From the NCBI GenBank assembly GCA_026989035.1, contig JALSKB010000052.1, positions 4,553-68,552 of the forward strand: a stretch of DNA of 64,000 nucleotides, given 5' to 3'. The notes beneath the pieces were generated by a model. That model was not told where the DNA came from. It saw only the letters and a program-made list of their open reading frames with translations, and did not search any database. Positions 22,385-44,707 of the stretch are shown here, piece after piece (position 1 is the first letter of the stretch; each line of letters starts with the position of its first letter). Made by a program: the position numbers and the translations under genes. Source of the DNA: Saprospiraceae bacterium (GTDB lineage Bacteria; Bacteroidota; Bacteroidia; Chitinophagales; Saprospiraceae).

Positions 22385-24001
22385 ATGAGAAAGAAGATCT
22401 TTTACTACCTGTTTTACTTTGTTTTTGCTGCTTTGATTGTGCAATCGTGTACTCCTCAGTATTTTCGCTCGAATTACCACGATGCCAATGAGCTTTTGCA
22501 GGAAACAGCCGGTTTAAAAGAAAAGCCTTACTTAAAAGCTCATCTCCGGGATGGTGATTTATACGTTTTGTGGGATTCCTGGCAGCTTGATACGACGCAA
22601 GGTTTGCTCCTTGGTGAGGGAGATCAGTATAATGTCTATCGGAAAAAAGTTTATCAAGGCAAGGTGACTATCCCTCTGGATAGTGTTGTGATTTTTGAAA
22701 CCAACACACCTCTGAAAGACATCCATAATGAAGAGGTTACAATTTCTACCCTTATCTTTGCTTTGAATGTTGTTGGAGCAATAGCTTGCCTGGTGAACCC
22801 CAAAGCTTGTTTTGGTTCCTGCCCAACTTTTTACACCAATGAGTCGGATAATGTCCATTACGCATCTGCCGAGGGTTTTTCAAATGCCATTTCACCTTCC
22901 ATGGAAGATTCGGATATTGATGCATTAGGTAGGTGGGAAATAGCAGATAGTATTTTTTCCATAAAAATGAAAAATGAAGCATTGGAAACGCACTATGTGA
23001 AAAACGTTCACCTACGGGCATGCCCTCTGAAAGATCAAGAACGGGTTTATCAATCACCATCTGATAAGTTTTATCTGTGTGAAAGCATTTATTTGCCAAG
23101 TTTGGCAGAGGCAGCAGAAGGAGACATTACATCCCTTTTAAAAGCCGAAGACAAACAAGAGCGATTTAGCCTGGCTGATGAAAAGAACTTGAGCAGTAAG
23201 GAAGAGATTTTTCTCACTTTTGAAGGTGTTGAAGATGCTAAAAATTTGGGCCTCGTACTTAGCTTTCGCCAAATGCTGATGACTACCTATTTCATTTACA
23301 GCGCATTAGATTACATGGGGGATGAAGCCGGCTACATTTTTGCTGAAATAGAACGAGGTAGCGATCTCAAAGACAAATTGAAAAGTGGCCTTAAAGCCGA
23401 GCTGGGAGATATAGATGTTTATTTTTGGAGTGAGAAAAAAACGGAATGGGTGTTTCAAGGAAGTTTTTATGAAACCGGCCCTATTGCCATCAACCAACAG
23501 TTTATTCCTTTGTGTTCAATTGATTCTCATCATTTTGACAAACAGCTTAAACTCAAACTCGTTTTAAACAAGGGGTTGTGGCGCATTGATTATCTCGCCT
23601 TAACCAGACTTAAAGCAGAAGTCATTCCACAAGAAATCCCTGTGCAACGAGTAGTCCGCCAGGGAAGTTTTGATGAGGAAGCCTTGAAACGTCTCAGGAA
23701 TTCAAATCAATACTTAGTCACTATGCCGGGTGACGAATACGAATTTCACTTTGCTCTGCCAGAAAAAAATGGAAACAGGACTTACGAATTGTTCTTGTAT
23801 TCAAAGGGCTACTACTTAGAGTGGATGCGTGATGAGTGGGTTCAAGACAAAGACCTCCGAAAGTTAAAACAGATGATAGACAAACCTAAAAAATACCTGA
23901 AGTCCGAAGCTAAGGCTTATAAGCTTTATGAGCAAGAAATGGAAGATGTCTTTTGGGGTTCAAGGATTAAAACCAAAAATTTCTCGTATGAAAACTTCTA
24001 A
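22385..24001 (+). CDS. Hypothetical lipoprotein (538 aa)
   Basis: Long ORF with a signal peptide and lipobox (LIVQSC). No domain I recognise. An internal Cys cluster is present (CLVNPKACFGSCP). Confidence 0.7.
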   Translation: MRKKIFYYLFYFVFAALIVQSCTPQYFRSNYHDANELLQETAGLKEKPYLKAHLRDGDLYVLWDSWQLDTTQGLLLGEGDQYNVYRKKVYQGKVTIPLDSVVIFETNTPLKDIHNEEVTISTLIFALNVVGAIACLVNPKACFGSCPTFYTNESDNVHYASAEGFSNAISPSMEDSDIDALGRWEIADSIFSIKMKNEALETHYVKNVHLRACPLKDQERVYQSPSDKFYLCESIYLPSLAEAAEGDITSLLKAEDKQERFSLADEKNLSSKEEIFLTFEGVEDAKNLGLVLSFRQMLMTTYFIYSALDYMGDEAGYIFAEIERGSDLKDKLKSGLKAELGDIDVYFWSEKKTEWVFQGSFYETGPIAINQQFIPLCSIDSHHFDKQLKLKLVLNKGLWRIDYLALTRLKAEVIPQEIPVQRVVRQGSFDEEALKRLRNSNQYLVTMPGDEYEFHFALPEKNGNRTYELFLYSKGYYLEWMRDEWVQDKDLRKLKQMIDKPKKYLKSEAKAYKLYEQEMEDVFWGSRIKTKNFSYENF

Positions 24002-24506
24002 ATTTACAGCATTACTCGCTTTCTGTTTTGCTTTACTCACCGCGTGTTCTGCGCCCGAGTTTCTGCCTGTAGCAGAAGAAATCGGGGAAAATCCCTACGG
24101 GTCGTATATTGATATCCAATTATTGGATAAGTCGGAAATTGAAGGCGAGTTAATAGCCGTTGAAGAGGAGCAAATTTGGGTTTGGGCAGAGTACAAAGAA
24201 GTGAACCTTGTAAAAAAGCTAAAGGCCGTAGCGAAGAAAGACATTAAATCTTTCCGCGTAAAATACCTGAATCCCCAGCCTTATACCAAATTTCTTGTTG
24301 GGTCTCTGCTGTTAACACCTCTTCACGGTTATTGGTTGATTTACAGCTTTCCCTTAGATACAATTGCTGGAATTTTGGTGAGCCTGGAAGGCACAGGTGA
24401 TTACATGTACAGAGACAATCAAATAAGCTACAGGCAGTTGAAAATGTTTGCCAGATACCCCCAGGGCCTTCCGCCAAACTTGGATTTAGAAGCGCAGAGT
24501 AAATGA
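23988..24506 (+). CDS. Hypothetical lipoprotein (172 aa) with a C-terminal hydrophobic region
   Basis: ATG 23988 gives MKTSKFTALLAFCFALLTAC (lipobox). It overlaps the upstream gene's end by 14 nt, suggesting translational coupling. Confidence 0.6.
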   Translation: MKTSKFTALLAFCFALLTACSAPEFLPVAEEIGENPYGSYIDIQLLDKSEIEGELIAVEEEQIWVWAEYKEVNLVKKLKAVAKKDIKSFRVKYLNPQPYTKFLVGSLLLTPLHGYWLIYSFPLDTIAGILVSLEGTGDYMYRDNQISYRQLKMFARYPQGLPPNLDLEAQSK

Positions 24507-24568
24507 ATGCATGGAGGAATAGCCGGTGGCTCTCAACAAAAGTTCATTCCCCCTGTGTCTTGCAGGTC

Positions 24569-24671
24569 TATACTCATGTAAAGTGGTTTGTGAGGCGTTA
24601 GCCTCTCCAACTCCCTATCTCTGGTTTGCTTGCGAGTCGTAAATGTCCCAAACCATTTCGGTTTGGGAATA
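24569..24671 (+). repeat. REP/MITE-like element, full length
   Basis: TATACTCATGTAAAGTGGTTTGTGAGGCGTTAGCC...TGCGAGTCGTAAATGTCCCAAACCATTTCGGTTTGGGAATA. Confidence 0.85.
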
Positions 24672-24815
24672 AAAGGTGTTTTGTGCGGGCCTAATTCTAT
24701 AGGCAGCAGCTGCCGAATCGGTAAAAATAGCGTAAACCATTTTTCCCTGAACAAACTTGGGTTTTGTCAAGGTCTAAGCTGTTGACGTAGGTGAGATTTT
24801 GCAATCGTTTTTTTT

Positions 24816-24823
24816 TATCTTTG
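24816..24823 (+). promoter_or_regulatory. Bacteroidota-type -7 promoter box
   Basis: TATCTTTG, with a TTTG at 24798-24801 as a possible -33 element. It would give a ~215-nt leader before the ATG at 25045. Confidence 0.35.
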
Positions 24824-25044
24824 TAGCTCAAGCACTCTTTTGCGTGCGAGGAGAAGACCTTATCTTAGTATAGATAGGCTTGCCTTAATCTGCCCCTTCA
24901 GACATCTACATACAAGTGTTTTTATCCCTCTTAAGCAGGTTGCTTGGAGGTAAAGACGACACGTGTTCCGGCTTAGTTTGAATAAGCTAAAAGCTAGCAC
25001 ATTAACACTGTTCAAGTCTTTTTTTTTGATATTAAAGTTTTGTC

Positions 25045-25797
25045 ATGAAAAACTTGCTGTTTTTTCTCGTTTCAAATCTTTTCGTTGCAGCTACCCTTTG
25101 GGCTCAGCCTACGGTGTACATCAGCCCAGCCACCTTATCTGCCGAGGCCGGAGAAATTACATGCGTAGATGTATAGGTTCTTGATTTTGTAGAACTTCAA
25201 GAGATAAATTTCTCCATTTTATGGGATTCTGAGGTTCTTACCAATTTTTCTGTTGCCAATTTGGACAGCCTACCCGGCACAACTACGCTGAACCTTGATG
25301 AAGAGGCGGGCGAGTTGTCCTTTTCCTGGAAAATAGATCCTTCCTCAGCCTGCCCGCCTTCAGATGAATGGCTTACCTTGCCGGATCAAAACGCACTTTT
25401 TTCTTTGTGTTTTGAAGGGGTGATGGGCTCAACAACGCTGGAAGTGCAAGCCGGTTATGTAACTCGAGTTAACGCTTGCCCGATAAACATTTCGATGTTT
25501 ACCGGCGATGCTGTGGTCGATATTACAACCCTTGTAGAAGGCCCTATGCGCTATACCTATGCAACACTTCAGGTTTATCCGACGCTAGCAAACCAAAAGG
25601 TCTTTTTTCACCTTCCGGAAAGTTTGGAGTCGTGTCGCATAGTGATCGTGCATGCACAAGGGCAGCAAATTGGTGAAATGGAAATTGCTGACGGAGCCGC
25701 GCTGGAACTCCCCTATCCGGGTGCGTATTTTATTGCTTTTTTTACAGCGGATGGTCGTCTGATCAAAACAATCCCAATTTGGTGTTTGCCTGAATGA
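25045..25797 (+). pseudogene. T9SS-secreted cohesin-like small protein interrupted by an in-frame TAG (25174-25176)
   Basis: ATG 25045 encodes a signal peptide (MKNLLFFLVSNLFVAATLWAQ) in the same frame as ORF 25261..25797. A single TAG separates them. The C-terminus (VYPTLANQKVFFHL...IVHAQGQQIG...) looks like a T9SS C-terminal sorting domain. Confidence 0.65.
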
Positions 25798-25850
25798 GCT
25801 TACCTTTTTGATCTTCCCGGAAAAAGCTCTATCTAAACCCAAAGGGTGAA

Positions 25851-25874
25851 TGTGGGATGCTGATGCATCCCACA
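25851..25874 (+). terminator. Hairpin terminator candidate
   Basis: TGTGGGATGC-TGAT-GCATCCCACA (10-bp stem) lies 54 nt after the stop at 25797 and is followed by AGTTGTTTTGG. Confidence 0.4.
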
Positions 25875-25937
25875 AGTTGTTTTGGCAGGAGTCAGCCTCC
25901 CAAATCACTATCCTTTTGCTCGTTTGCGAGTTGTAAA
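25874..25937 (+). repeat. REP/MITE-like element, truncated copy (lacks both termini)
   Basis: AAGTTGTTTTGGCAGGAGTCAGCCTCCCAAATCACTATCCTTTTGCTCGTTTGCGAGTTGTAAATA abuts the next full copy directly. Confidence 0.7.
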
Positions 25938-26040
25938 TATACTCATGGCGAAGTGGTTTGGGGGGCGTTAGCTCCCCAAACTCCCTATTTTTACTCGTTT
26001 GCGAGTCGTAAATATCCCAAACCATTTCGGTTTGGGTATA
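25938..26040 (+). repeat. REP/MITE-like element, full length
   Basis: TATACTCATGGCGAAGTGGTTTGGGGGGCGTTAGCTCCCCAAACTCCC...GCGAGTCGTAAATATCCCAAACCATTTCGGTTTGGGTATA. Confidence 0.9.
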
Positions 26041-26113
26041 TTTCGGCAAATTGAAAACCCCATGATGAGCGTTTAAAGCTTCCTCATTTCCTGTCGTTAT
26101 CCTTAAAAACGCT

Positions 26114-26121
26114 TATATTTG
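26114..26121 (+). promoter_or_regulatory. Bacteroidota-type -7 promoter box for the 3TM/pYEATS-like operon
   Basis: TATATTTG lies 35 nt upstream of ATG 26156. It overlaps the GTG (26123) used in the ORF track. Confidence 0.45.
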
Positions 26122-26155
26122 TGTGTATATAGAAAAGTCCAAATCCCCACACCTT

Positions 26156-26704
26156 ATGAATGCAGACACCTTTTTCGGTTTCTTTGAGCAACACAGCATG
26201 GGCGTACTTCTTTTTCTGGTCGTGCTCTTTTGCGTGGTATTGATGATTGCTTGGCTTGCCCGCATTTTCGGAATAGGCCAGTACAGCAGGCGCTACTCTT
26301 CCAGTTTGGGTACCAGAGAACGCCTGGGTTTTGTCATTGCCCGATTTTTTGCCAACATCATAGACGATTTCCGCCACTTTTTGGCCTTGATGCTGGTCGT
26401 GATTTTCACCGTACTCATCATTTACTCTATGGCTGCAGCAGGGAGCTTTGAAGAGAAAATGAAAGCTTTGCAACTTGTTATTGCTTCTATAGGTACCTTG
26501 CTGGGATCCATCATTGGCTATTACTTTGGAGAATCGGCTGCCAATAAAATCAACAACAGCCAGGCAAGTGTGGAAAACAATCAGGATAACATACCTGTTG
26601 AGCAGGAAGTGTTTCAACCCGAAATAAAAGGTTATGAGGCAAGTACAGAGGAAGCCATCCGCCCCGTAACACCTCCAGATCACCTCATTCCCAAAGAAGA
26701 TTAA
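26156..26704 (+). CDS. Three-TM membrane protein with an acidic/polar tail (YLATT-like partner of the pYEATS-like gene)
   Basis: Three clean hydrophobic helices (GVLLFLVVLFCVVLMIAWLARIF; HFLALMLVVIFTVLIIYSMAAA; LQLVIASIGTLLGSIIGYYFG), then a low-complexity tail. The stop is 5 nt before the next ATG. Confidence 0.65.
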   Translation: MNADTFFGFFEQHSMGVLLFLVVLFCVVLMIAWLARIFGIGQYSRRYSSSLGTRERLGFVIARFFANIIDDFRHFLALMLVVIFTVLIIYSMAAAGSFEEKMKALQLVIASIGTLLGSIIGYYFGESAANKINNSQASVENNQDNIPVEQEVFQPEIKGYEASTEEAIRPVTPPDHLIPKED

Positions 26705-26709
26705 ACGAC

Positions 26710-27114
26710 ATGGAAAGAAGGAAAAAACAATACAGCCTGGAAATTTTCGATTCGCTTTTCAGCCCCTATGAAACACTGGCAGAAGGTGAGAAAAGAAAGG
26801 CCTATTACAAAGAAGCTACCGATGCCAAAGGCGAGAAAACAGTTTGGTACAAAGTTTGGATTTATTTGGATGGTCCGGATTTGCCCTTTGTACAAAGTGT
26901 TACTTATAAACTACATCCAACCTTCCCCAATCCCGTCCGCCATATCAGTTGCACTCCGGATAATCCCAAAGCAGCTTTTTACATCTGGACCTGGGGCGTC
27001 TTCACCATTGAAGCTGAAATTGAAGATCTGAAAGGGCGAACCATGCGCACCTCTCATTTTCTTACTTACGATAGCCTCTTGAGAAATGAAAGCATCGAAT
27101 GGGTTAAGGTATGA
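26710..27114 (+). CDS. Small soluble protein resembling the prokaryotic YEATS (pYEATS) domain
   Basis: 134 aa. The core WYKVWIYLDGPDLPFVQSVTYKLHPTFPNPV ... FYIWTWGVFTIEAEI matches my recollection of the pYEATS signature (beta-rich, aromatic, 'V.Y.LHPTF'). Confidence 0.55.
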   Translation: MERRKKQYSLEIFDSLFSPYETLAEGEKRKAYYKEATDAKGEKTVWYKVWIYLDGPDLPFVQSVTYKLHPTFPNPVRHISCTPDNPKAAFYIWTWGVFTIEAEIEDLKGRTMRTSHFLTYDSLLRNESIEWVKV

Positions 27115-30100
27115 GTTTTTTTTCGGGAGAACTCTTTTGATCATCTTGCCTGCCCTTTGCCTTTTGGTCTTGGCAAACAAGACAAAAGCGCAAATGTGGA
27201 ACGGGCAAGATTCCCTGTATGGCTACGAGTGGATTGATTACGATAAAACCTGGTATAAGTTTGGCGTAAGCGAAGACGGCTGGTATCGCATTCCCTATGA
27301 AGTATTGCAAAGCATCTTACCTGTCAATCTGCCGGCAAGCCATATCCAACTCTACCACCTGGGGCGCCCCGTAAAAATACACGCATCTACAACAGGGCCT
27401 CTACAAACTGGAGATTATCTGGAGTTTTACGGATTGAAAAACCGAGGTGAACTTGACTCCTTTCTCTATGCTCAACCGGAGCAAATGTTTAATCCATATG
27501 TCAGCCTTTTTAACGACACTTCTACTTACTTTTTGAGCTGGGACGATCAACAATCTTTTTCCGGGTTTGTGCAAGAGTGGCCTAACGATATCTCTTCCCC
27601 TCCCCCTGCTGAACTTTATTGCACGGCAGAAACTCTCGTAGCTTTCAACGAAAGCTACATCAAACGGTCGGTCTCTTACGGTGGGGAGGAAATCAGCTAT
27701 TCCCACTTTCGAGATGCTGAAGGTTACTCATCGTCTTGGAGTACAGATCGAACTGTGTCCTTACCTGCCAGCGGTCTCTACCTGGCAGGCCCTCAAGCGG
27801 AGTTGAATCTTAGCTTCTCCGGCAAACACGGAAACCACCTTCAACAAGTCTTGCTCAACGGCAATTTGTTGGAAGAATTTTCTACCTATGGAATGGTCGG
27901 TCAAAAACCGGTTTATTCGCTTGACCCCTCTGAGTTGAGCGAACAAAATATCGTAGAAATTAAGGGCGTTTTTGACAATTTCGACAAAATTAAAACAGGA
28001 TATGTAAGGCTGCGCTATCCAAGACAATTTGACTTTGGCTCTGATACTTTGAATCTGTTTAGCCTTTCGGCAAATGGCAGCCCGCAGTACCTGGAAATAG
28101 CCGGATATGACAACAGCAGCGCAAAGCCTGCTTTGTACGACCTGAGCAACGGATATCGCATCGACCCGATTTACGAAAACGGATTGTTGAAAGCGGTGTT
28201 TCCGCCGGCAGAGGGAAGCAGAAAAGTATTGCTCGTCAAAGAAAAAATTTATGCCGAAATAACGGAGTTGACAGCTGTTTCTTTTGATAACATCCCCGAC
28301 AACTCGGCTCAATTTATCATTATCTATCACCCCGATTTAAACGAATCGTACAACGGTCAAAATCCCGTAGAGGCTTATGTGCAATATCGCAGCTCTGCTT
28401 CAGGGAATGCCATGACCACTGTTGCCATAGACATCCATCAGCTATACGACCAATTTGCTTACGGCATCAAACGGCATCCTCTGGCCATCCGGAATTTTGC
28501 CTTTTACGCCAAAAAACACTGGCCGGAGGCCTCCTACCTCTTTCTCATCGGGCGAGGATACACCTATACCGGCATACGCAGCAGTTATCAACTCGGGCTG
28601 CACCAGGGTGTTGATTTCTTTATTCCCACCTTTGGTACGCCACCCTCCGACAATCTGCTCGTGGCCGATCCTGCTGCGACAGAGATGGCTTTGCCTATAG
28701 GCCGCCTTCCGGCAAAAACTCCCAAAGAGGTCATGGATTACCTCGAGAAGGTCGAGCAATTTGAAGCCAACCAAATGGATTTGCCGCAAACCATCAGCGA
28801 CAAAGCCTGGATGAAAGAAATCATGCATCTGGGAGGTGGGAGCTCTAGTGGACAGCAACAATACATCAAAGGTGTACTTCTCCAAATGGAAAACACCATA
28901 GCAAACAACCTTTTTGGTGGTCATGTAACATCCTTTTATAAAACCAGCTCTAACCCCATAGAAACGACCCAGTCCGAAGCCTTAAAGCAGCGCATCAATG
29001 AGGGCTTGTCTATTTTGACTTTTTACGGTCATTCCAGTGCCAACACCTTTGACTTTAATTTTGACAACCCGGATAGCTACGACAATTACGGCAAATATCC
29101 CTGGATGATGTCTTACGGCTGTTTTTCCGGTAATGCGTTTTCTTCCAATGTGGGTATCGGAGAGCGTTTTGTCCTTGCTCCCGAACGGGGCTCCATAGCT
29201 TTTTCGGCTTCCACCTCTTTTGCCTTTAGCAATTCTTTGGAGCAACTTGGAAAGCACACGTATGAGCTTATAGGTGGAGCTCTTTACGGCATGGGGATAG
29301 GTGATTTTCTTCGTTTTTCAACGGAATATTTGTGGGCTTCCAGCGCGACGGGGGATCGGGAATTGGGCGAGCAAAACGTCTTACAGGGCGATCCTTCATT
29401 GCGGTTAAATCCTCATCCGGGCCCTGATTACCTGCCTGATCCGGCCTCTGTGGGTTTTGCACCGGAATTTCTCAACACGGAGCTCGACAGCCTGGAGTTC
29501 TTTTTTGATATCGTCAATCTGGGTGTGAACCAGACAGACAGTTTGCTCCAGGTACAAGTAGAACAACGCCTGCCCGATGGCAACCGCGTTTTGCTCATCG
29601 ACAGCTTGGTACCTGCACCGGCTTTTCGTTCGACATTTCGCTTTGCCCTGCCGGGTTTTGGCGAAGCTGCTCGCGGAATGAATCGCTTCTACCTCACCTT
29701 GGATGCCGCCAACCGTATCCAGGAACTACCGTCAGCAGCAGAAAACAACAACCGACTCATCGGCCCGGATGGAGAAGAAGGCCTTCCTGTTTACATCGTA
29801 TCCAACGATCTTCTGCCCTTAGACCCACCGGATTTTTCCATCGTGCAAGAATCCAACCCTACGCTCAGGGCCTCAAGTCTGAATCCATTTGCCGAAAGGC
29901 AAAAATTTATCTTTCAAATCGACACCACAGAGCATTTCAACAGTCCTTTGTTGCAGCAAGGTGAAATTGAACAGCAAGGTGGGGTACTTAGCTGGCAGCC
30001 CATGCTCAATATGGAGGACAGCACCGTCTATTACTGGCGTATCAGCCCCGACAGCTTGCCTCCGGTAGGCTATCGATGGAGGTATAGCTCTTTTGTTTAT

Positions 30101-32143
30101 TTGCCTCAAAGTGCAAATGGCTGGAACCAATCTCATTTCTTCCAATTTGCCAAGAACGAATTTTCCTTCATGGAGTGGCCGGAAGAAACCCGCACCCTGG
30201 ATTTTGCCAGCAATTTCATCGACGTCAAAATTAAAAACAGAATTTACGATCCTCCTTACGGCATACCCCGCTATTTCATCGGAAACGAAACCATAGCCAG
30301 CTACTACGGATATTCCGCTCTGCCCGCTGGTGTTATGGTGGGCGTTCTGGATTCACTTACAGCGGAGCCTTGGATCAACCCGGGTGGATTGCCCTATGGA
30401 GACGATATCTCCATCAACGGGCAGGGTGGCTTCCTCTTCTTCACTTCCGATTCCCTGCAAAGGGCTGAATTGATTGACTTTTTGGAAAATACAGTACCTA
30501 ACGGTTTTTACGTGGTCTTCTTTACCGTTCAAAAAAACGCCAGTGCGAGCTATAAGCCGGAAGAGTGGGTCAACGATCTCATCCCGTACCTCCAGGCTCA
30601 AGGGTGTAGCCTTGTATCTCAATTACCGGATGAGGAAACCGTAAAGCCCTATTCCCTTTTTTACCGCAAAGGACATCCGGAATATGGTGTCAATGAAACC
30701 ATCACCGAACCCGGCCAAGTAAGTGAACAACACAACGCCCTTCCGGGCGATTGGGACTTCGGCCACTTGAGTTCGGTGCTCATCGGCCCGGCCCAAAGCT
30801 GGGAGAGTCTGCAGTGGAAATGGGGGGTACAAGATAGCAGCGATGTGGTGGACATTAAGGTTTACGGCATCCGCTCATCCGGCCAAGACAGCCTCATTTT
30901 TTCAGGGCTGAGTGCGGAATTTCAGGATTTACAGAATATTTCCGCATTGAACTTTCCGTATTTGCAGTTGGAGTATGCTGCCCAAGATGAAATACATCGC
31001 TCTCCTCCTCAACTCAAATTCTGGCGAGTACTTTATGAAGGGCTCCCCGATGCAGCGGTAGCTCCCAACAGCTTCTTCAACTTCCATGCTGACAGCTTGC
31101 AACAAGGAGATCGGCTAAACTTAGAGCTGGCCATAGTGAATACTTCAAAATATGAGATGGACAGCATATTGGTTCGCTTCAGCTTGTTAAGCAGCAGCAA
31201 TGAACTGATTGAGATAGATAAACGCTTTGCCCCTTTACCGGCTTATGACAGCTTGCACATCTATTTCTCTTACGACACCTACGGGCTGGAAGGCAACTAC
31301 ACCCTCAACCTCCTTTTGAATCCCGAAGCAGAACAAGCCGAGCGCAGTTATGAAAACAATCGCTTGAGCATTCCCTTTTATGTGATCAAAGACCAACGCA
31401 ACCCCTTATTGGATGTAACTTTCGATGGCGAGCACATTTTCGACGGCGATCTGGTGTCTGCGGAACCTGAAGTGCTCATTCAACTCAAGGATGAAAATCC
31501 GTTCTTGCCCATTGCCGACACCACAGCCTTTGAGCTCTTGCTCAAAGAACCGGATGGTCAATTAAAACGCCTCTATTTCAGCCAGCCCGAGTTGAGTTTT
31601 GTTCCGGCTACCAAGGAAGACAACCGAGCTTATGCCCGCTGGACACCCCGCTTTGAAAAAGATGGAGAATACCGCCTCTACATTTCCGCCCGCGATGCCA
31701 GTGGAAACGAAAGTGGCGACCTCAATTACGCCTTGTCGCAATCTGAGTTTGGCTATGATTTTGAGCAGCGCTTCAAAGTATTTACAACAGCTGCCATTTC
31801 CAATGTACTGACCTATCCCAACCCCTTTTCTACGCAAACGTATTTCGTTTATACCCTGACGGGCAGTAAAGCACCCGCAGACTTTCGCATTCAGATTTAC
31901 ACGGTATCCGGGCGTTTGGTGCGCCAATTAACTCAAGCTGATTTGGGGCCTCTGCGCGTGGGAACCCACCGTACCGATTTGCCTTGGGATGGTACGGACC
32001 AATACGGCGACCCTTTAGCCAAAGGCGTTTATCTCTATCGCATTTTGGCCAGAGATGCTGAGGGCAAAGAGCTGGATTTTTTTCCTACCGGAGCTGACGC
32101 TTATTTCCAGCAGGGTTTTGGCAAACTGGTTATTCTTCGTTAG
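27086..32143 (+). CDS. Giant C25-family (gingipain-like) cysteine peptidase, PorU-like putative T9SS sortase, with a C-terminal FlgD-Ig/T9SS-type domain
   Basis: 1685 aa with a signal peptide. The PorU-like N-terminus reads YEWIDYDKTWYKFGVSEDGWYRIPY. A His/Cys dyad context is present (ILTFYGHSSAN ... MMSYGCFSGNAF). The C-terminus reads YPNPFSTQTYFVYTL...IYTVSGRLV...GVYLYRI. Confidence 0.75.
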   Translation: MKASNGLRYEFFFGRTLLIILPALCLLVLANKTKAQMWNGQDSLYGYEWIDYDKTWYKFGVSEDGWYRIPYEVLQSILPVNLPASHIQLYHLGRPVKIHASTTGPLQTGDYLEFYGLKNRGELDSFLYAQPEQMFNPYVSLFNDTSTYFLSWDDQQSFSGFVQEWPNDISSPPPAELYCTAETLVAFNESYIKRSVSYGGEEISYSHFRDAEGYSSSWSTDRTVSLPASGLYLAGPQAELNLSFSGKHGNHLQQVLLNGNLLEEFSTYGMVGQKPVYSLDPSELSEQNIVEIKGVFDNFDKIKTGYVRLRYPRQFDFGSDTLNLFSLSANGSPQYLEIAGYDNSSAKPALYDLSNGYRIDPIYENGLLKAVFPPAEGSRKVLLVKEKIYAEITELTAVSFDNIPDNSAQFIIIYHPDLNESYNGQNPVEAYVQYRSSASGNAMTTVAIDIHQLYDQFAYGIKRHPLAIRNFAFYAKKHWPEASYLFLIGRGYTYTGIRSSYQLGLHQGVDFFIPTFGTPPSDNLLVADPAATEMALPIGRLPAKTPKEVMDYLEKVEQFEANQMDLPQTISDKAWMKEIMHLGGGSSSGQQQYIKGVLLQMENTIANNLFGGHVTSFYKTSSNPIETTQSEALKQRINEGLSILTFYGHSSANTFDFNFDNPDSYDNYGKYPWMMSYGCFSGNAFSSNVGIGERFVLAPERGSIAFSASTSFAFSNSLEQLGKHTYELIGGALYGMGIGDFLRFSTEYLWASSATGDRELGEQNVLQGDPSLRLNPHPGPDYLPDPASVGFAPEFLNTELDSLEFFFDIVNLGVNQTDSLLQVQVEQRLPDGNRVLLIDSLVPAPAFRSTFRFALPGFGEAARGMNRFYLTLDAANRIQELPSAAENNNRLIGPDGEEGLPVYIVSNDLLPLDPPDFSIVQESNPTLRASSLNPFAERQKFIFQIDTTEHFNSPLLQQGEIEQQGGVLSWQPMLNMEDSTVYYWRISPDSLPPVGYRWRYSSFVYLPQSANGWNQSHFFQFAKNEFSFMEWPEETRTLDFASNFIDVKIKNRIYDPPYGIPRYFIGNETIASYYGYSALPAGVMVGVLDSLTAEPWINPGGLPYGDDISINGQGGFLFFTSDSLQRAELIDFLENTVPNGFYVVFFTVQKNASASYKPEEWVNDLIPYLQAQGCSLVSQLPDEETVKPYSLFYRKGHPEYGVNETITEPGQVSEQHNALPGDWDFGHLSSVLIGPAQSWESLQWKWGVQDSSDVVDIKVYGIRSSGQDSLIFSGLSAEFQDLQNISALNFPYLQLEYAAQDEIHRSPPQLKFWRVLYEGLPDAAVAPNSFFNFHADSLQQGDRLNLELAIVNTSKYEMDSILVRFSLLSSSNELIEIDKRFAPLPAYDSLHIYFSYDTYGLEGNYTLNLLLNPEAEQAERSYENNRLSIPFYVIKDQRNPLLDVTFDGEHIFDGDLVSAEPEVLIQLKDENPFLPIADTTAFELLLKEPDGQLKRLYFSQPELSFVPATKEDNRAYARWTPRFEKDGEYRLYISARDASGNESGDLNYALSQSEFGYDFEQRFKVFTTAAISNVLTYPNPFSTQTYFVYTLTGSKAPADFRIQIYTVSGRLVRQLTQADLGPLRVGTHRTDLPWDGTDQYGDPLAKGVYLYRILARDAEGKELDFFPTGADAYFQQGFGKLVILR
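28062..28074 (+). repeat. GCCTTTCGGCAAA word copy
   Basis: Exact 13-mer in the PorU-like gene, read as L-S-A-N. Confidence 0.9.
29888..29900 (-). repeat. GCCTTTCGGCAAA word copy
   Basis: TTTGCCGAAAGGCAAA on the + strand in the PorU-like gene, read as F-A-E-R-Q. Confidence 0.9.
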
Positions 32144-32177: not shown

Positions 32178-33143
32178 TCAAAATAAGCTTTCGATGATGT
32201 GTTCTTCGGTGATACCTTCCGCCTCGGCTTTGTAATTGCGCACAATGCGGTGGCGCAACACGTATTTGGCAATGGCTCGCACATCTTCTTCGTCAGGGGC
32301 GTACTTGCCGTGGATGCCGGCATGACATTTGGCGCCAAGGACCAGATACTGGGACGCTCGAGGGCCCGCTCCCCAGGAGATGTAGTTGTTTACGGCTTCG
32401 GTAGCGTGTTCTGTGCCCGGTCGAGTGCGAACAGCCAGAGAAACGGCATATTCAAGGACGTGGTCGGATACGGGTATTTTTCTGACCAATTGTTGGAATG
32501 CCAAGATATCCGAATCGCTGAGAATGTGCTTTAGTTCGTAATTTTGAGGAGCTGTAGTTTGTCGAACGACTTGGATTTCCTCTTGATAAGAGGGGTAGTC
32601 CAAGGGGATATTAAACATGAAGCGGTCGAGTTGGGCTTCGGGCAGTGGATAGGTACCCTCTTGTTCTATGGGGTTTTGGGTTGCCAAAACGAAAAAGGGT
32701 GCGGGCAGGGGGTGGCGTTCGCCACCTACTGTAACGGATCGCTCTTGCATGGCTTCCAACAAGGCAGCTTGTGTTTTAGGCGGGGTACGGTTGATTTCAT
32801 CGGCCAATACGATGTTGGCGAAAACGGGACCTCGATTGAAGTGGAAATGCCTTTCTTCATCCATGACTTCCGAGCCCGTGATATCCGAAGGCATCAGGTC
32901 CGGGGTGAATTGGATGCGCTTGAAGTCCAAATCGAGCACTTCGGCGATGGTACTGATGAGCAGTGTTTTGGCCAGCCCGGGCACGCCTACCAAAAGGCTG
33001 TGCCCGTTGCTGAAAAGGGATATGATGACTGCCTGTACCACTTCGTTTTGTCCTACAATGACTTTGCTGATCTCATTGCTGAGGTCGCGATAAGCTTGAG
33101 CCATGGCGTCCACGCCTTCTCTATCGGATTGGAATTTTTTCAT
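32178..33143 (-). CDS. MoxR-family AAA+ ATPase
   Basis: Walker A context LLVGVPGLAKT, IQFTPDLMPSDITG, Walker B LADEINRTPPKTQAALLEAMQE. ATG 33143 is the start. Confidence 0.9.
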   Translation of the reverse strand: MKKFQSDREGVDAMAQAYRDLSNEISKVIVGQNEVVQAVIISLFSNGHSLLVGVPGLAKTLLISTIAEVLDLDFKRIQFTPDLMPSDITGSEVMDEERHFHFNRGPVFANIVLADEINRTPPKTQAALLEAMQERSVTVGGERHPLPAPFFVLATQNPIEQEGTYPLPEAQLDRFMFNIPLDYPSYQEEIQVVRQTTAPQNYELKHILSDSDILAFQQLVRKIPVSDHVLEYAVSLAVRTRPGTEHATEAVNNYISWGAGPRASQYLVLGAKCHAGIHGKYAPDEEDVRAIAKYVLRHRIVRNYKAEAEGITEEHIIESLF

Positions 33144-33242
33144 GTTCGTGTTTTTGCAGGCTGCAAAGATAGACAAAGCCCGCAGACTTCCGCATGCAGG
33201 GCAGCTACGGGCTAAACACTTTGCCTTGTACCAGGGGTCTTT

Positions 33243-44603: not shown

Positions 44604-44707
44604 TATACCCAAACCGAAACGGTTTGGGATATTTACAGCTCGCAAAAGAGTGAAAGATAGGGAGTCTGGGGGGCTGATGCCTCCCAGACCACTTCGCCAT
44701 GAGTATA
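44604..44707 (-). repeat. REP/MITE-like element, full length, reverse orientation
   Basis: The reverse complement reads TATACTCATGGCGAAGTGGTCTGGGAGGCATCAGCCCCCCAGACTCCCTATC...CCCAAACCGTTTCGGTTTGGGTATA. It carries a compensatory T>C / A>G change in the stem. Confidence 0.9.

Follow-up and report, generated by a model that had tools for sequence, protein, structure and literature searches.

The locus lies in a 64,000-nt stretch of DNA from a Saprospiraceae bacterium, hereafter the window, by which the whole stretch that was analysed is meant. Its two genes are located on the forward strand. The first one (26156..26704) encodes a 182-aa predicted inner-membrane protein with three transmembrane helices (3TM protein), recognised from its open reading frame, hydropathy, AlphaFold model, and conservation. 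The second one (26710..27114) begins 5 nt past the stop codon of the first, as the initial annotation had stated, and encodes a 134-aa pYEATS-domain protein, identified with Pfam, AlphaFold, Foldseek, and hhalign. This protein is presumably cytosolic, since its sequence contains no N-terminal hydrophobic segment. The pair is followed on the same strand by a gene (27086..32143) encoding a PorU2-type T9SS sortase-like protein of 1685 aa.

Upstream of the pair, the gene described initially as a pseudogene is indeed interrupted: it has an in-frame TAG at 25174–25176, whereas in a sibling assembly the codon is CAG and the 250-aa ORF is intact. The cluster of REP-like elements reported before the pair is also real, with the repeat core TTGCGAGTCGTAAAT present in six copies in the whole window against 0.14 expected. 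A scan for terminator-like structures revealed three G+C-rich hairpins with T-rich tails on the forward strand (25851–25874, 25955–25982, and 26016–26036). They are contained in copies of the repeat families D1–D3 and I1, between the interrupted gene and the pair, and probably insulate it from upstream transcription or end that transcription. The candidate promoter of the pair, TATATTTG (26114–26121, forward strand), comes 3' of these hairpins and 34 nt 5' of the ATG codon of the 182-aa ORF. It is an exact match to TAnnTTTG, the −7 promoter consensus of Bacteroidota, in agreement with the initial reading; the motif alone is not significant, the window containing 62 matches where 50.7 are expected. 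The sequence TATCTTTG aligns to the same place in L001, the nearest relative. Scanning this region for sigma-70 promoters was uninformative, the host group being Bacteroidota, and an Rfam search of positions 24400–27300 returned nothing real. The two-gene unit appears to extend from the box at 26114 into the PorU2 gene.

The PorU-like nature suggested for the 1685-aa product is borne out by the NCBIfam PorU2 model NF052324 (700.9 bits; cut-off 450), the Peptidase_C25 domain PF01364 (E = 1.3e-51), and the T9SS C-terminal sorting domain TIGR04183 (24.3 bits; cut-off 23). The 29-nt overlap with the pYEATS gene is obtained with the ATG at 27086 and hinges on the choice of the start codon, which gene callers in sibling assemblies put at Met37. 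The start at 27086 is favoured because the N-terminus MKxSNG..YE and a signal-peptide-like stretch are conserved in relatives. In this genome, the PorU2 gene is probably co-transcribed with the pair. Given the overlap, the lack of a terminator between the pYEATS and PorU2 genes, and the conservation of both the arrangement and the PorU2 N-terminus in the window, L001, L009, and L010 as well as in L048–L050, the pair might be an accessory of the sortase-like protein that regulates its expression, export, or activity. We consider this very improbable, however: PorU2 follows the pair in Saprospiraceae only (the window, L001, L002, L009, L010, and the near-identical L048–L050), whereas about 36 loci of other lineages, including T9SS-bearing Bacteroidota, have the pair with unrelated neighbours, and to our knowledge many of the phyla carrying the pair lack a T9SS. 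The adjacency is therefore a lineage-specific synteny. The initial description of the pair as fused onto a PorU-like gene was not supported, since adjacency and overlap are confined to a Saprospiraceae subclade, and the adjacency should not be over-interpreted in annotation.

The 134-aa protein belongs to a family that is already known. It passes the Pfam pYEATS model PF20305 (NCBI name "pYEATS domain-containing protein") with 66.3 bits against a cut-off of 26.9, its residues 47–119 match model positions 1–73 of 73, and nothing sets it apart from the family. It passes the YEATS model PF03366 too (28.0 bits; cut-off 22). The AlphaFold model (pLDDT 91.7) is nearly all beta, as anticipated, with nine strands in an Ig-like beta sandwich. 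When this model was compared with the PDB using Foldseek, the top 50 matches were all YEATS domains (E ~1e-5, probability 1.0), with a TM of about 0.45–0.50 and an identity of about 19–20%; a profile search against the PDB indicated Yaf9 (E = 3e-7). All 117 pYEATS relatives found are small single-domain proteins of 100–148 aa.

Experimental knowledge of YEATS domains is confined to eukaryotes, in which they read lysine acylation on chromatin. The eukaryotic representatives (AF9/ENL, GAS41/Yaf9, Taf14, and YEATS2; PF03366) share with pYEATS the Ig-like fold and the pocket motifs LH-x-[ST]-F and [YW]-[AG]-x-F. The hhalign alignment places AF9 residues H56, S58, F59, G77, Y78, A79, and F81 opposite pYEATS residues H69, T71, F72, T94, W95, G96, and F98, respectively; the AF9 sequence and the numbers of its acyl-lysine pocket residues are presumably those of Li et al. 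2014. Among 116 pYEATS sequences, F72, W95, G96, and F98 are invariant, H69 and T94 are conserved in at least 90%, and the positions matching AF9 rank among the most conserved columns. As judged from this alignment, pYEATS keeps the aromatic pocket that eukaryotic YEATS domains use for N-acyl-lysine. The initial assignment of the protein to pYEATS was thus upheld by the Pfam profile, the predicted fold, and the pocket residues. The aromatic pocket could also hold a ligand other than acyl-lysine.

Unlike the eukaryotic domains, pYEATS has an extra conserved N-terminal strand or motif, as well as four residues inserted ahead of the WTWG loop; the conserved N-terminal element D14-S15...P19 and the invariant W93 are absent from AF9. 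It also stands alone, outside chromatin complexes, and is coupled genetically to a membrane protein, and we know of no histone substrate in these bacteria. These family-specific elements, together with the only moderate fold similarity to YEATS (TM ~0.48, 19–20% identity) and a tight or overlapping gene spacing that recalls toxin–antitoxin pairs, would fit another explanation. pYEATS might be an Ig-like adaptor or chaperone for the 3TM protein, or an antitoxin-like inhibitor of a holin-like toxin, its aromatic residues being structural or binding something other than an acyl-amide. This explanation seems improbable, as some of the most conserved columns are those lining the acyl-lysine pocket of AF9 and Yaf9, for which fold stability alone accounts poorly.

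The 182-aa protein had been described as having three transmembrane helices and a polar tail, and the Kyte–Doolittle profile (hydrophobic segments at residues ~15–40, 73–97, and 103–125) and the AlphaFold model (helices 14–39, 54–94, and 98–138) agree on this. The confidence of the model is moderate (pLDDT 69). The tail, disordered from residue 138, is proline-rich and acidic. Counts of K+R are 0.6 in the N-terminus, 4.8 in loop 1, and 0.9 in loop 2, so an N-out/C-in topology is predicted, in which the N-terminus would be outside and the arginine-rich loop 1 and the acidic tail would be cytoplasmic. Neither the tail nor the loops contain a conserved lysine that might serve as a mark. An invariant DFRH motif is located ahead of TM2, and TM3 contains a glycine zipper followed by GYYFGESAA. 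The pattern [GAS]xxxGxxxG was found within TM3 in 39 of 39 sequences. Glycine zippers are characteristic of helices packed into homo-oligomers and of proteins that form channels or pores. They are carried by non-channel membrane proteins as well.

Searches for the 3TM protein revealed 46 close homologues and, among 1.84 billion cluster representatives, 383 at E ≤ 1e-3. No family match was found among the Pfam, NCBIfam, PADLOC, and PHROG models, and the Yip1 and glycine-zipper matches in these searches were sub-threshold noise. The AlphaFold model had no fold match in the PDB according to Foldseek (best E = 4.3). The family, which is without a model, can be defined for annotation by the motifs DFRH and GxxxGxxxGYYFGESAA and could be named after its partnership with pYEATS.

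This partnership is highly conserved, as the initial annotation had supposed in treating the two genes as a unit. Starting from the 3TM protein, pYEATS was found directly downstream in all eight loci; starting from pYEATS, a 3TM homologue was located directly upstream on the same strand in 36 of the 39 species-representative loci, with gaps between the two genes from −8 to +162 nt. The pair spans more than ten phyla, among them Bacteroidota, Chloroflexota, Acidobacteriota, Proteobacteria, Actinomycetota, and Myxococcota. All-vs-all clustering of the neighbours showed that only 3TM and pYEATS recur across loci, and a Pfam census of 115 flanking ORFs, in which no family appeared more than three times, revealed no third conserved gene. 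Pairwise divergence in one protein goes along with that in the other (Mantel r = 0.75, reached in 0 of 2000 permutations). Judging by sequence and gene order, the two genes make up a chromosomal operon that is complete in itself and occurs sporadically in many bacterial phyla.

Divergent pYEATS genes on one Myxococcales and one Promethearchaeota contig are preceded by a different, 2TM protein; these 2TM proteins are homologous to each other (E = 1e-15). Their homology to the 3TM family was rejected (hhalign probability 0.1). The L044 partner shows marginal similarity to the L045 and L052 partners (E = 0.09–0.13). No match to SLATT or any other Pfam family was found for the alternative partners of L044 and L045, and a search of PADLOC-DB v2 with the alternative partners gave no significant match. 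Such swapping of the membrane partner would be anticipated for a pYEATS sensor that can be combined with interchangeable membrane effectors.

The reading we prefer, at a probability of roughly 45%, is that pYEATS is a reader docked on its 3TM partner and that the pair combines an acyl-amide sensor with an oligomerising membrane effector or transducer. The pYEATS protein would dock on the cytoplasmic face of the 3TM protein and read an acyl-amide mark, which could be carried by a protein as an acylated lysine or be a comparable small ligand. Binding of the mark might then control oligomerisation or conductance of the 3TM protein, whose glycine zipper would make it the oligomerising effector or transducer. 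It is also conceivable, though unlikely in our estimate, that a mark arising from infection or from metabolic or envelope stress makes pYEATS open or assemble a glycine-zipper pore, in the manner of a "reader-gated membrane effector".

A conflict role for the pair is possible. The initial annotation had connected it with NTP-dependent conflict systems and with an accessory context, and neither suggestion was supported by the surroundings. NTP-dependent conflict systems link an NTPase (STAND, MoxR-vWA, GTPase, etc.) genetically to effector-associated domains (Kaur et al. 2020). Conserved neighbours of the pair, whether NTPases or others, were not found, and the Pfam census of flanking ORFs revealed no adjacent defence islands. 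EAD11-type conflict genes adjoin the pair in a single locus, L046. A MoxR gene lies beyond PorU2 on the opposite strand (32178–33176) and was seen only in Saprospiraceae loci. Neither protein has a significant match in PADLOC-DB v2, and the PHROG models gave no match for the pair. Relatives of the pair were not found in IMG/VR viral contigs, in BFVD structures at E ≤ 1e-3, or in PLSDB plasmids, and their absence from the viral-contig and plasmid collections argues against carriage by mobile elements. The position of the pair is stable within lineages, with conserved synteny within genera and families, and its GC content of 0.43–0.45 is like that of its flanks. In some loci, the neighbours are ordinary housekeeping or envelope genes such as TrkAH, FeoAB, PspC/PadR, rpsA, and glycogen genes.

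All these features of an ordinary chromosomal pair (stable position, matching GC content, ordinary neighbours, and no relatives in viral contigs, plasmids, or the defence database) are also what one would expect of non-lethal physiological signalling or anchoring. The 3TM protein would then tether the reader at the inner membrane with neither a pore nor a conflict role. The tethered reader would monitor protein acylation (for example of lysines, driven by acetyl-phosphate or acyl-CoA) or an envelope-derived acyl-amide metabolite, and would recruit or regulate other proteins. We regard this explanation as possible but rather doubtful. The distribution is very patchy: scanning 185,579 species representatives for the pattern confirmed at least 39 loci, including just two Tenacibaculum representatives, and the 383 clusters stand against 1.84 billion. 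Sequences are about 40% identical between phyla, in keeping with an accessory function that spreads horizontally. In addition, the invariant glycine zipper and DFRH motif exceed the needs of an anchor, and divergent members exchange the 3TM protein for another membrane family.

Among known systems, the pair can be compared with SLATT-type modules of a sensor and a transmembrane effector; SLATT-type 2TM effectors in prokaryotic conflict systems were reportedly described by Burroughs et al. 2015. A soluble ligand-binding protein, a small multi-TM protein with an oligomerisation motif, and a membrane partner that is exchangeable between subfamilies are common to both. Unlike SLATT-type conflict systems, the pair is without a conserved nucleotide-generating enzyme, NTPase, or third component, and without a defence-island context or PADLOC match. 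The name YLATT, given in the initial annotation to a three-TM partner co-occurring with pYEATS, would suit the 3TM protein in its three helices and its adjacency to pYEATS (8/8 and 36/39 loci). No relevant paper with this term was found, and no curated Pfam or NCBIfam model of that name matches the 3TM family. SLATT is mentioned in PMC7159879 (Kaur et al. 2020, eLife), probably the work on conflict systems meant in the initial annotation, and the main text and one supplement of that paper do not mention the YEATS domain, "Yeats" appearing there only as an author name. The literature search found no experimental function for bacterial YEATS proteins or for the 3TM partner, in line with the initial statement; papers on a "YEATS-like domain" concern human ZAK-alpha and SWI/SNF, not bacterial YEATS function.

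Lysine acylation is abundant in bacteria, and we know of no dedicated acyl-lysine reader domain demonstrated in them. The pair is a candidate small enough to be tested, consisting of a 134-aa protein whose predicted reader pocket is intact and a single membrane partner. Knowing its ligand and output would tell us if acylation marks are read in prokaryotes, and which task the YEATS fold performed ancestrally. If pYEATS is a genuine acyl-lysine or acyl-amide reader that gates a membrane effector, bacteria would have in the pair their first functional acyl-lysine reader system. Relatives were also detected on MAG contigs assigned to Promethearchaeota (an Asgard lineage) and Thermoplasmatota, and under the same condition they would make the pair a plausible evolutionary source of the chromatin YEATS domain of eukaryotes.

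The gene at 26710–27114 (+) encodes a 134-aa protein that matches the Pfam model pYEATS (PF20305) with 66.3 bits (cut-off 26.9) and also passes the model of the eukaryotic YEATS acyl-lysine reader domain (PF03366, 28.0 bits; cut-off 22). The AlphaFold model of this protein, made with a 116-sequence alignment, has a pLDDT of 91.7 and is nearly all-beta. When Foldseek compared it with the PDB, each of the 50 best matches was a YEATS domain (GAS41, Yaf9, ENL, AF9, Taf14, and Sas5), with a probability of 1.0, E values of about 1e-5, and TM scores of about 0.45–0.50. A search of PDB sequences with a 41-member pYEATS profile revealed Yaf9 (E = 3e-7), YEATS2, Taf14, GAS41, AF9, and ENL. The domain call of the initial annotation was right; the domain already has a curated Pfam entry and an NCBI name.

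The hhalign comparison places H69, T71, and F72 opposite H56, S58, and F59 of AF9, and T94, W95, G96, and F98 opposite its G77, Y78, A79, and F81; the AF9 sequence and numbering follow Li et al. 2014. The AF9-aligned pocket columns include some of the most conserved in the family, where F72, W95, G96, and F98 are invariant and the conservation of H69 and T94 is at least 90%. By alignment and model, the 134-aa protein has the YEATS fold with its pocket intact and is a putative reader. The pYEATS family differs from eukaryotic YEATS domains in a conserved element near the N-terminus (D14-S15...P19), the invariant W93, and an insertion of four residues ahead of the WTWG loop. Because a hydrophobic segment is lacking at its N-terminus, the 134-aa protein is predicted to be cytosolic.

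The preceding gene (26156–26704, +) encodes a protein of 182 aa from its ATG; an alternative GTG start at 26123 would add 11 residues. Exactly three transmembrane helices had been proposed for it, in agreement with both the Kyte–Doolittle hydrophobic segments (about 15–40, 73–97, and 103–125) and the AlphaFold helices (14–39, 54–94, and 98–138), after which the tail is disordered from residue 138 (mean pLDDT 69; helical core 78–88). None of the 46 close relatives of this protein (3TM) contains a Pfam domain; searches of Pfam, NCBIfam, PADLOC, and PHROGs with the window protein and divergent members gave nothing above noise, and no fold relative of the model was found in the PDB. Among 1.84 billion cluster representatives searched with a profile, 383 matched at E ≤ 1e-3, and the best 150 of these are 107–280 aa in length. 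The 3TM proteins are a distinct family without a model in any library searched. Their invariant motifs are D/N-D-F-R-H-[FL]-L-A-L at the start of TM2 and A-L-Q-L-V-I-A-S-L-G-G-L-L-G-S-I-I-G-Y-Y-F-G-E-S-A-A across TM3, and the glycine zipper [GAS]xxxGxxxG is present in TM3 of 39/39 sequences. Since lysine and arginine are concentrated in loop 1 (mean K+R 4.8, versus 0.6 at the N-terminus and 0.9 in loop 2), the positive-inside rule predicts an N-out/C-in topology. The conserved amphipathic segment before TM2 and the tail, which is acidic and rich in Pro (net charge about −7), would then be cytoplasmic, in the same compartment as pYEATS.

Both the identity of these genes and their pairing are near certain. 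A pYEATS gene lies directly downstream in all eight contexts examined from the 3TM side. An independent scan with the pYEATS profile, run on a single genome from each GTDB species, gave 39 loci in Bacteroidota, Rhodothermales, Ignavibacteria, Calditrichota, Zixibacteria, Chloroflexota, Acidobacteriota, Acidimicrobiia, Alpha- and Gammaproteobacteria, Myxococcota, Verrucomicrobiota, and Thermoplasmatota. In 35 of them the gene immediately 5' of pYEATS, on the same strand, matches the 3TM HMM (E = 1e-30 to 1e-75), as does, weakly, that of the archaeal locus (E = 3e-4); the intergenic distance varies from −8 to +162 nt. The pairwise identities among pYEATS proteins rise and fall with those among their 3TM partners (Mantel r = 0.75, 0/2000 permutations), as co-inheritance predicts. 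When all ORFs within 6 kb of the pair were clustered against one another, pYEATS (45 loci) and 3TM (41 loci) were the only conserved families. The co-occurrence expected by the initial annotation is thus observed, and the pair is an unremarkable representative of a two-gene family that is real and widespread. The PorU-like gene, to which the module had been described as fused, is outside the conserved unit: it adjoins the pair in five loci, all from Saprospiraceae, and this linkage is lineage-specific synteny. In Cytophagales (Tunicatimonas and relatives; L004 5025–7864, and L019), the pair lies directly 3' of a PadR regulator and an 821-aa PspC/LiaF-type envelope-stress protein, a lineage-specific neighbourhood that hints at a membrane-stress connection.

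The best-supported mechanism, to which we assign a probability of about 0.45, is that cytosolic pYEATS would read an acyl-amide while docked on its 3TM partner, a membrane protein that would oligomerise through its glycine zipper. The two-gene family would allow a direct test of whether prokaryotes read lysine acylation.

It is possible that the pair is a conflict system. Its phyletic spread is patchy (only 39 loci, a lower bound, were confirmed when 185,579 species representatives were scanned by pattern), identity between phyla is about 40%, and the membrane partner is swapped in some loci. However, PADLOC and PHROGs gave no matches for the pair, no relatives were found in the viral-contig and plasmid collections searched, and its GC content resembles that of the flanks. 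The neighbours contain no defence islands; when 115 ORFs flanking the pair in 33 non-redundant loci were assigned to Pfam families, no family occurred in more than three, and synteny, shared only within lineages (for example, Tenacibaculum L005/L020, Anaerolineae L014/L015, and Pyrinomonadaceae L027/L042), is stable there. In favour of a conflict role, one surveyed locus, and no other, has a recognisable conflict-system neighbour: in a Sandaracinaceae MAG (L046, 6316–8997, −), the pair is followed directly, on the opposite strand, by genes for two proteins with effector-associated domain 11 (EAD11), one of which is fused to a trypsin-like peptidase. The suggested NTP-dependent context was not borne out, as no NTPase is conserved with the pair among the neighbourhoods compared. 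The MoxR-type AAA+ ATPase gene (32178–33176, −; AAA_3/bpMoxR by precomputed Pfam in the near-identical assembly L048) is convergent with the PorU-like gene, lies beyond it, and is found only in Saprospiraceae loci; this adjacency recurs among relatives, with the opposite orientation in L002.

One pYEATS gene is solo (L041). In Opitutaceae (L044) and Myxococcales (L045), a divergent pYEATS follows the gene of another protein, about 220 aa long and with two hydrophobic helices, for which no Pfam model was found; the same arrangement occurs on a Promethearchaeota MAG contig. The Promethearchaeota partner was rejected as a 3TM family member, being unrelated to that family, and is homologous to the Myxococcales partner (E = 1e-15). 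Members of this second family (L045 5195–5902, L052 3379–3981, and L044 5341–5994; about 200–235 aa) start with an N-terminal helix (motif D-x-W-I-D-A) and have two TM helices as well as a helical C-terminal region. pYEATS is therefore coupled to small membrane proteins from two or more unrelated families, a pattern suggestive of a sensor with exchangeable membrane effectors. Small membrane proteins also adjoin pYEATS on the archaea-assigned contigs (L051/L052, Promethearchaeota, Asgard lineage; L047, Thermoplasmatota), and the Thermoplasmatota partner retains just a TM3-like IGYYFG helix. Archaeal pYEATS could be relevant to how eukaryotic YEATS arose, but these contigs are short (5–8 kb) and may reflect binning errors.

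The nearest named relatives of the window are Saprospiraceae MAGs; over 3.2 kb (24001–27200) it is 99.75% identical to a contig of GCA_054026355.1. The pYEATS gene begins five nucleotides past the 3TM ORF, and its own ORF overlaps by 29 nt that of the 1685-aa PorU2-type T9SS sortase-like protein (27086–32143, +; NCBIfam NF052324, 701 bits, cut-off 450; Peptidase_C25 and a T9SS sorting domain also matched). Automatic gene calls in the near-identical assemblies L048–L050 start PorU2 at Met37 (1649 aa; region 27086–27196), cutting off a hydrophobic signal-peptide-like stretch. Because only the upstream start keeps this stretch and the N-terminus MK(A/T)xNG..YE (also given as MKxSNG..YE), conserved in L001, L009, and L010, the sequence favours ATG 27086, and we accept the overlap as initially described. 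No terminator-like sites were found at the junctions of the three genes, which are probably co-transcribed in this genome; the scan detected a weak 5-bp stem inside the 3TM coding region.

The Bacteroidota −7 consensus, known from work on Bacteroides promoters, is TAnnTTTG. The proposed promoter box TATATTTG (26114–26121, +) matches it exactly, and the nearest relative (L001) carries TATCTTTG at the aligned position. The motif is no commoner in the window than expected (62 found versus 50.7 ± 7.7), so the box alone is weak evidence; its placement is sensible, 34 nt 5' of the 3TM ATG and directly past three strong hairpins with T-rich tails (25851–25874, 25955–25982, and 26016–26036). These lie within the REP-like repeats already noted upstream of the pair. 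This REP/MITE-like intergenic family (24570–24671, 25897–26043, and near 44631 (−), 49531, and 50271) has six copies in the window versus 0.14 expected; its core TTGCGAGTCGTAAAT is followed by the palindrome CCCAAACCATTTCGGTTTGGG, and several copies fold as terminator-like hairpins. The upstream pseudogene (25045–25797, +) corresponds to a secreted protein of 250 aa, which has a signal peptide, a C-terminus resembling a T9SS sorting domain, and no Pfam match. The gene is indeed interrupted, by an in-frame TAG at 25174–25176, whereas in the sibling assembly (L049 8318–9070) CAG replaces this codon and the ORF is intact; the interruption is a nonsense polymorphism or a sequencing error rather than a frameshift.
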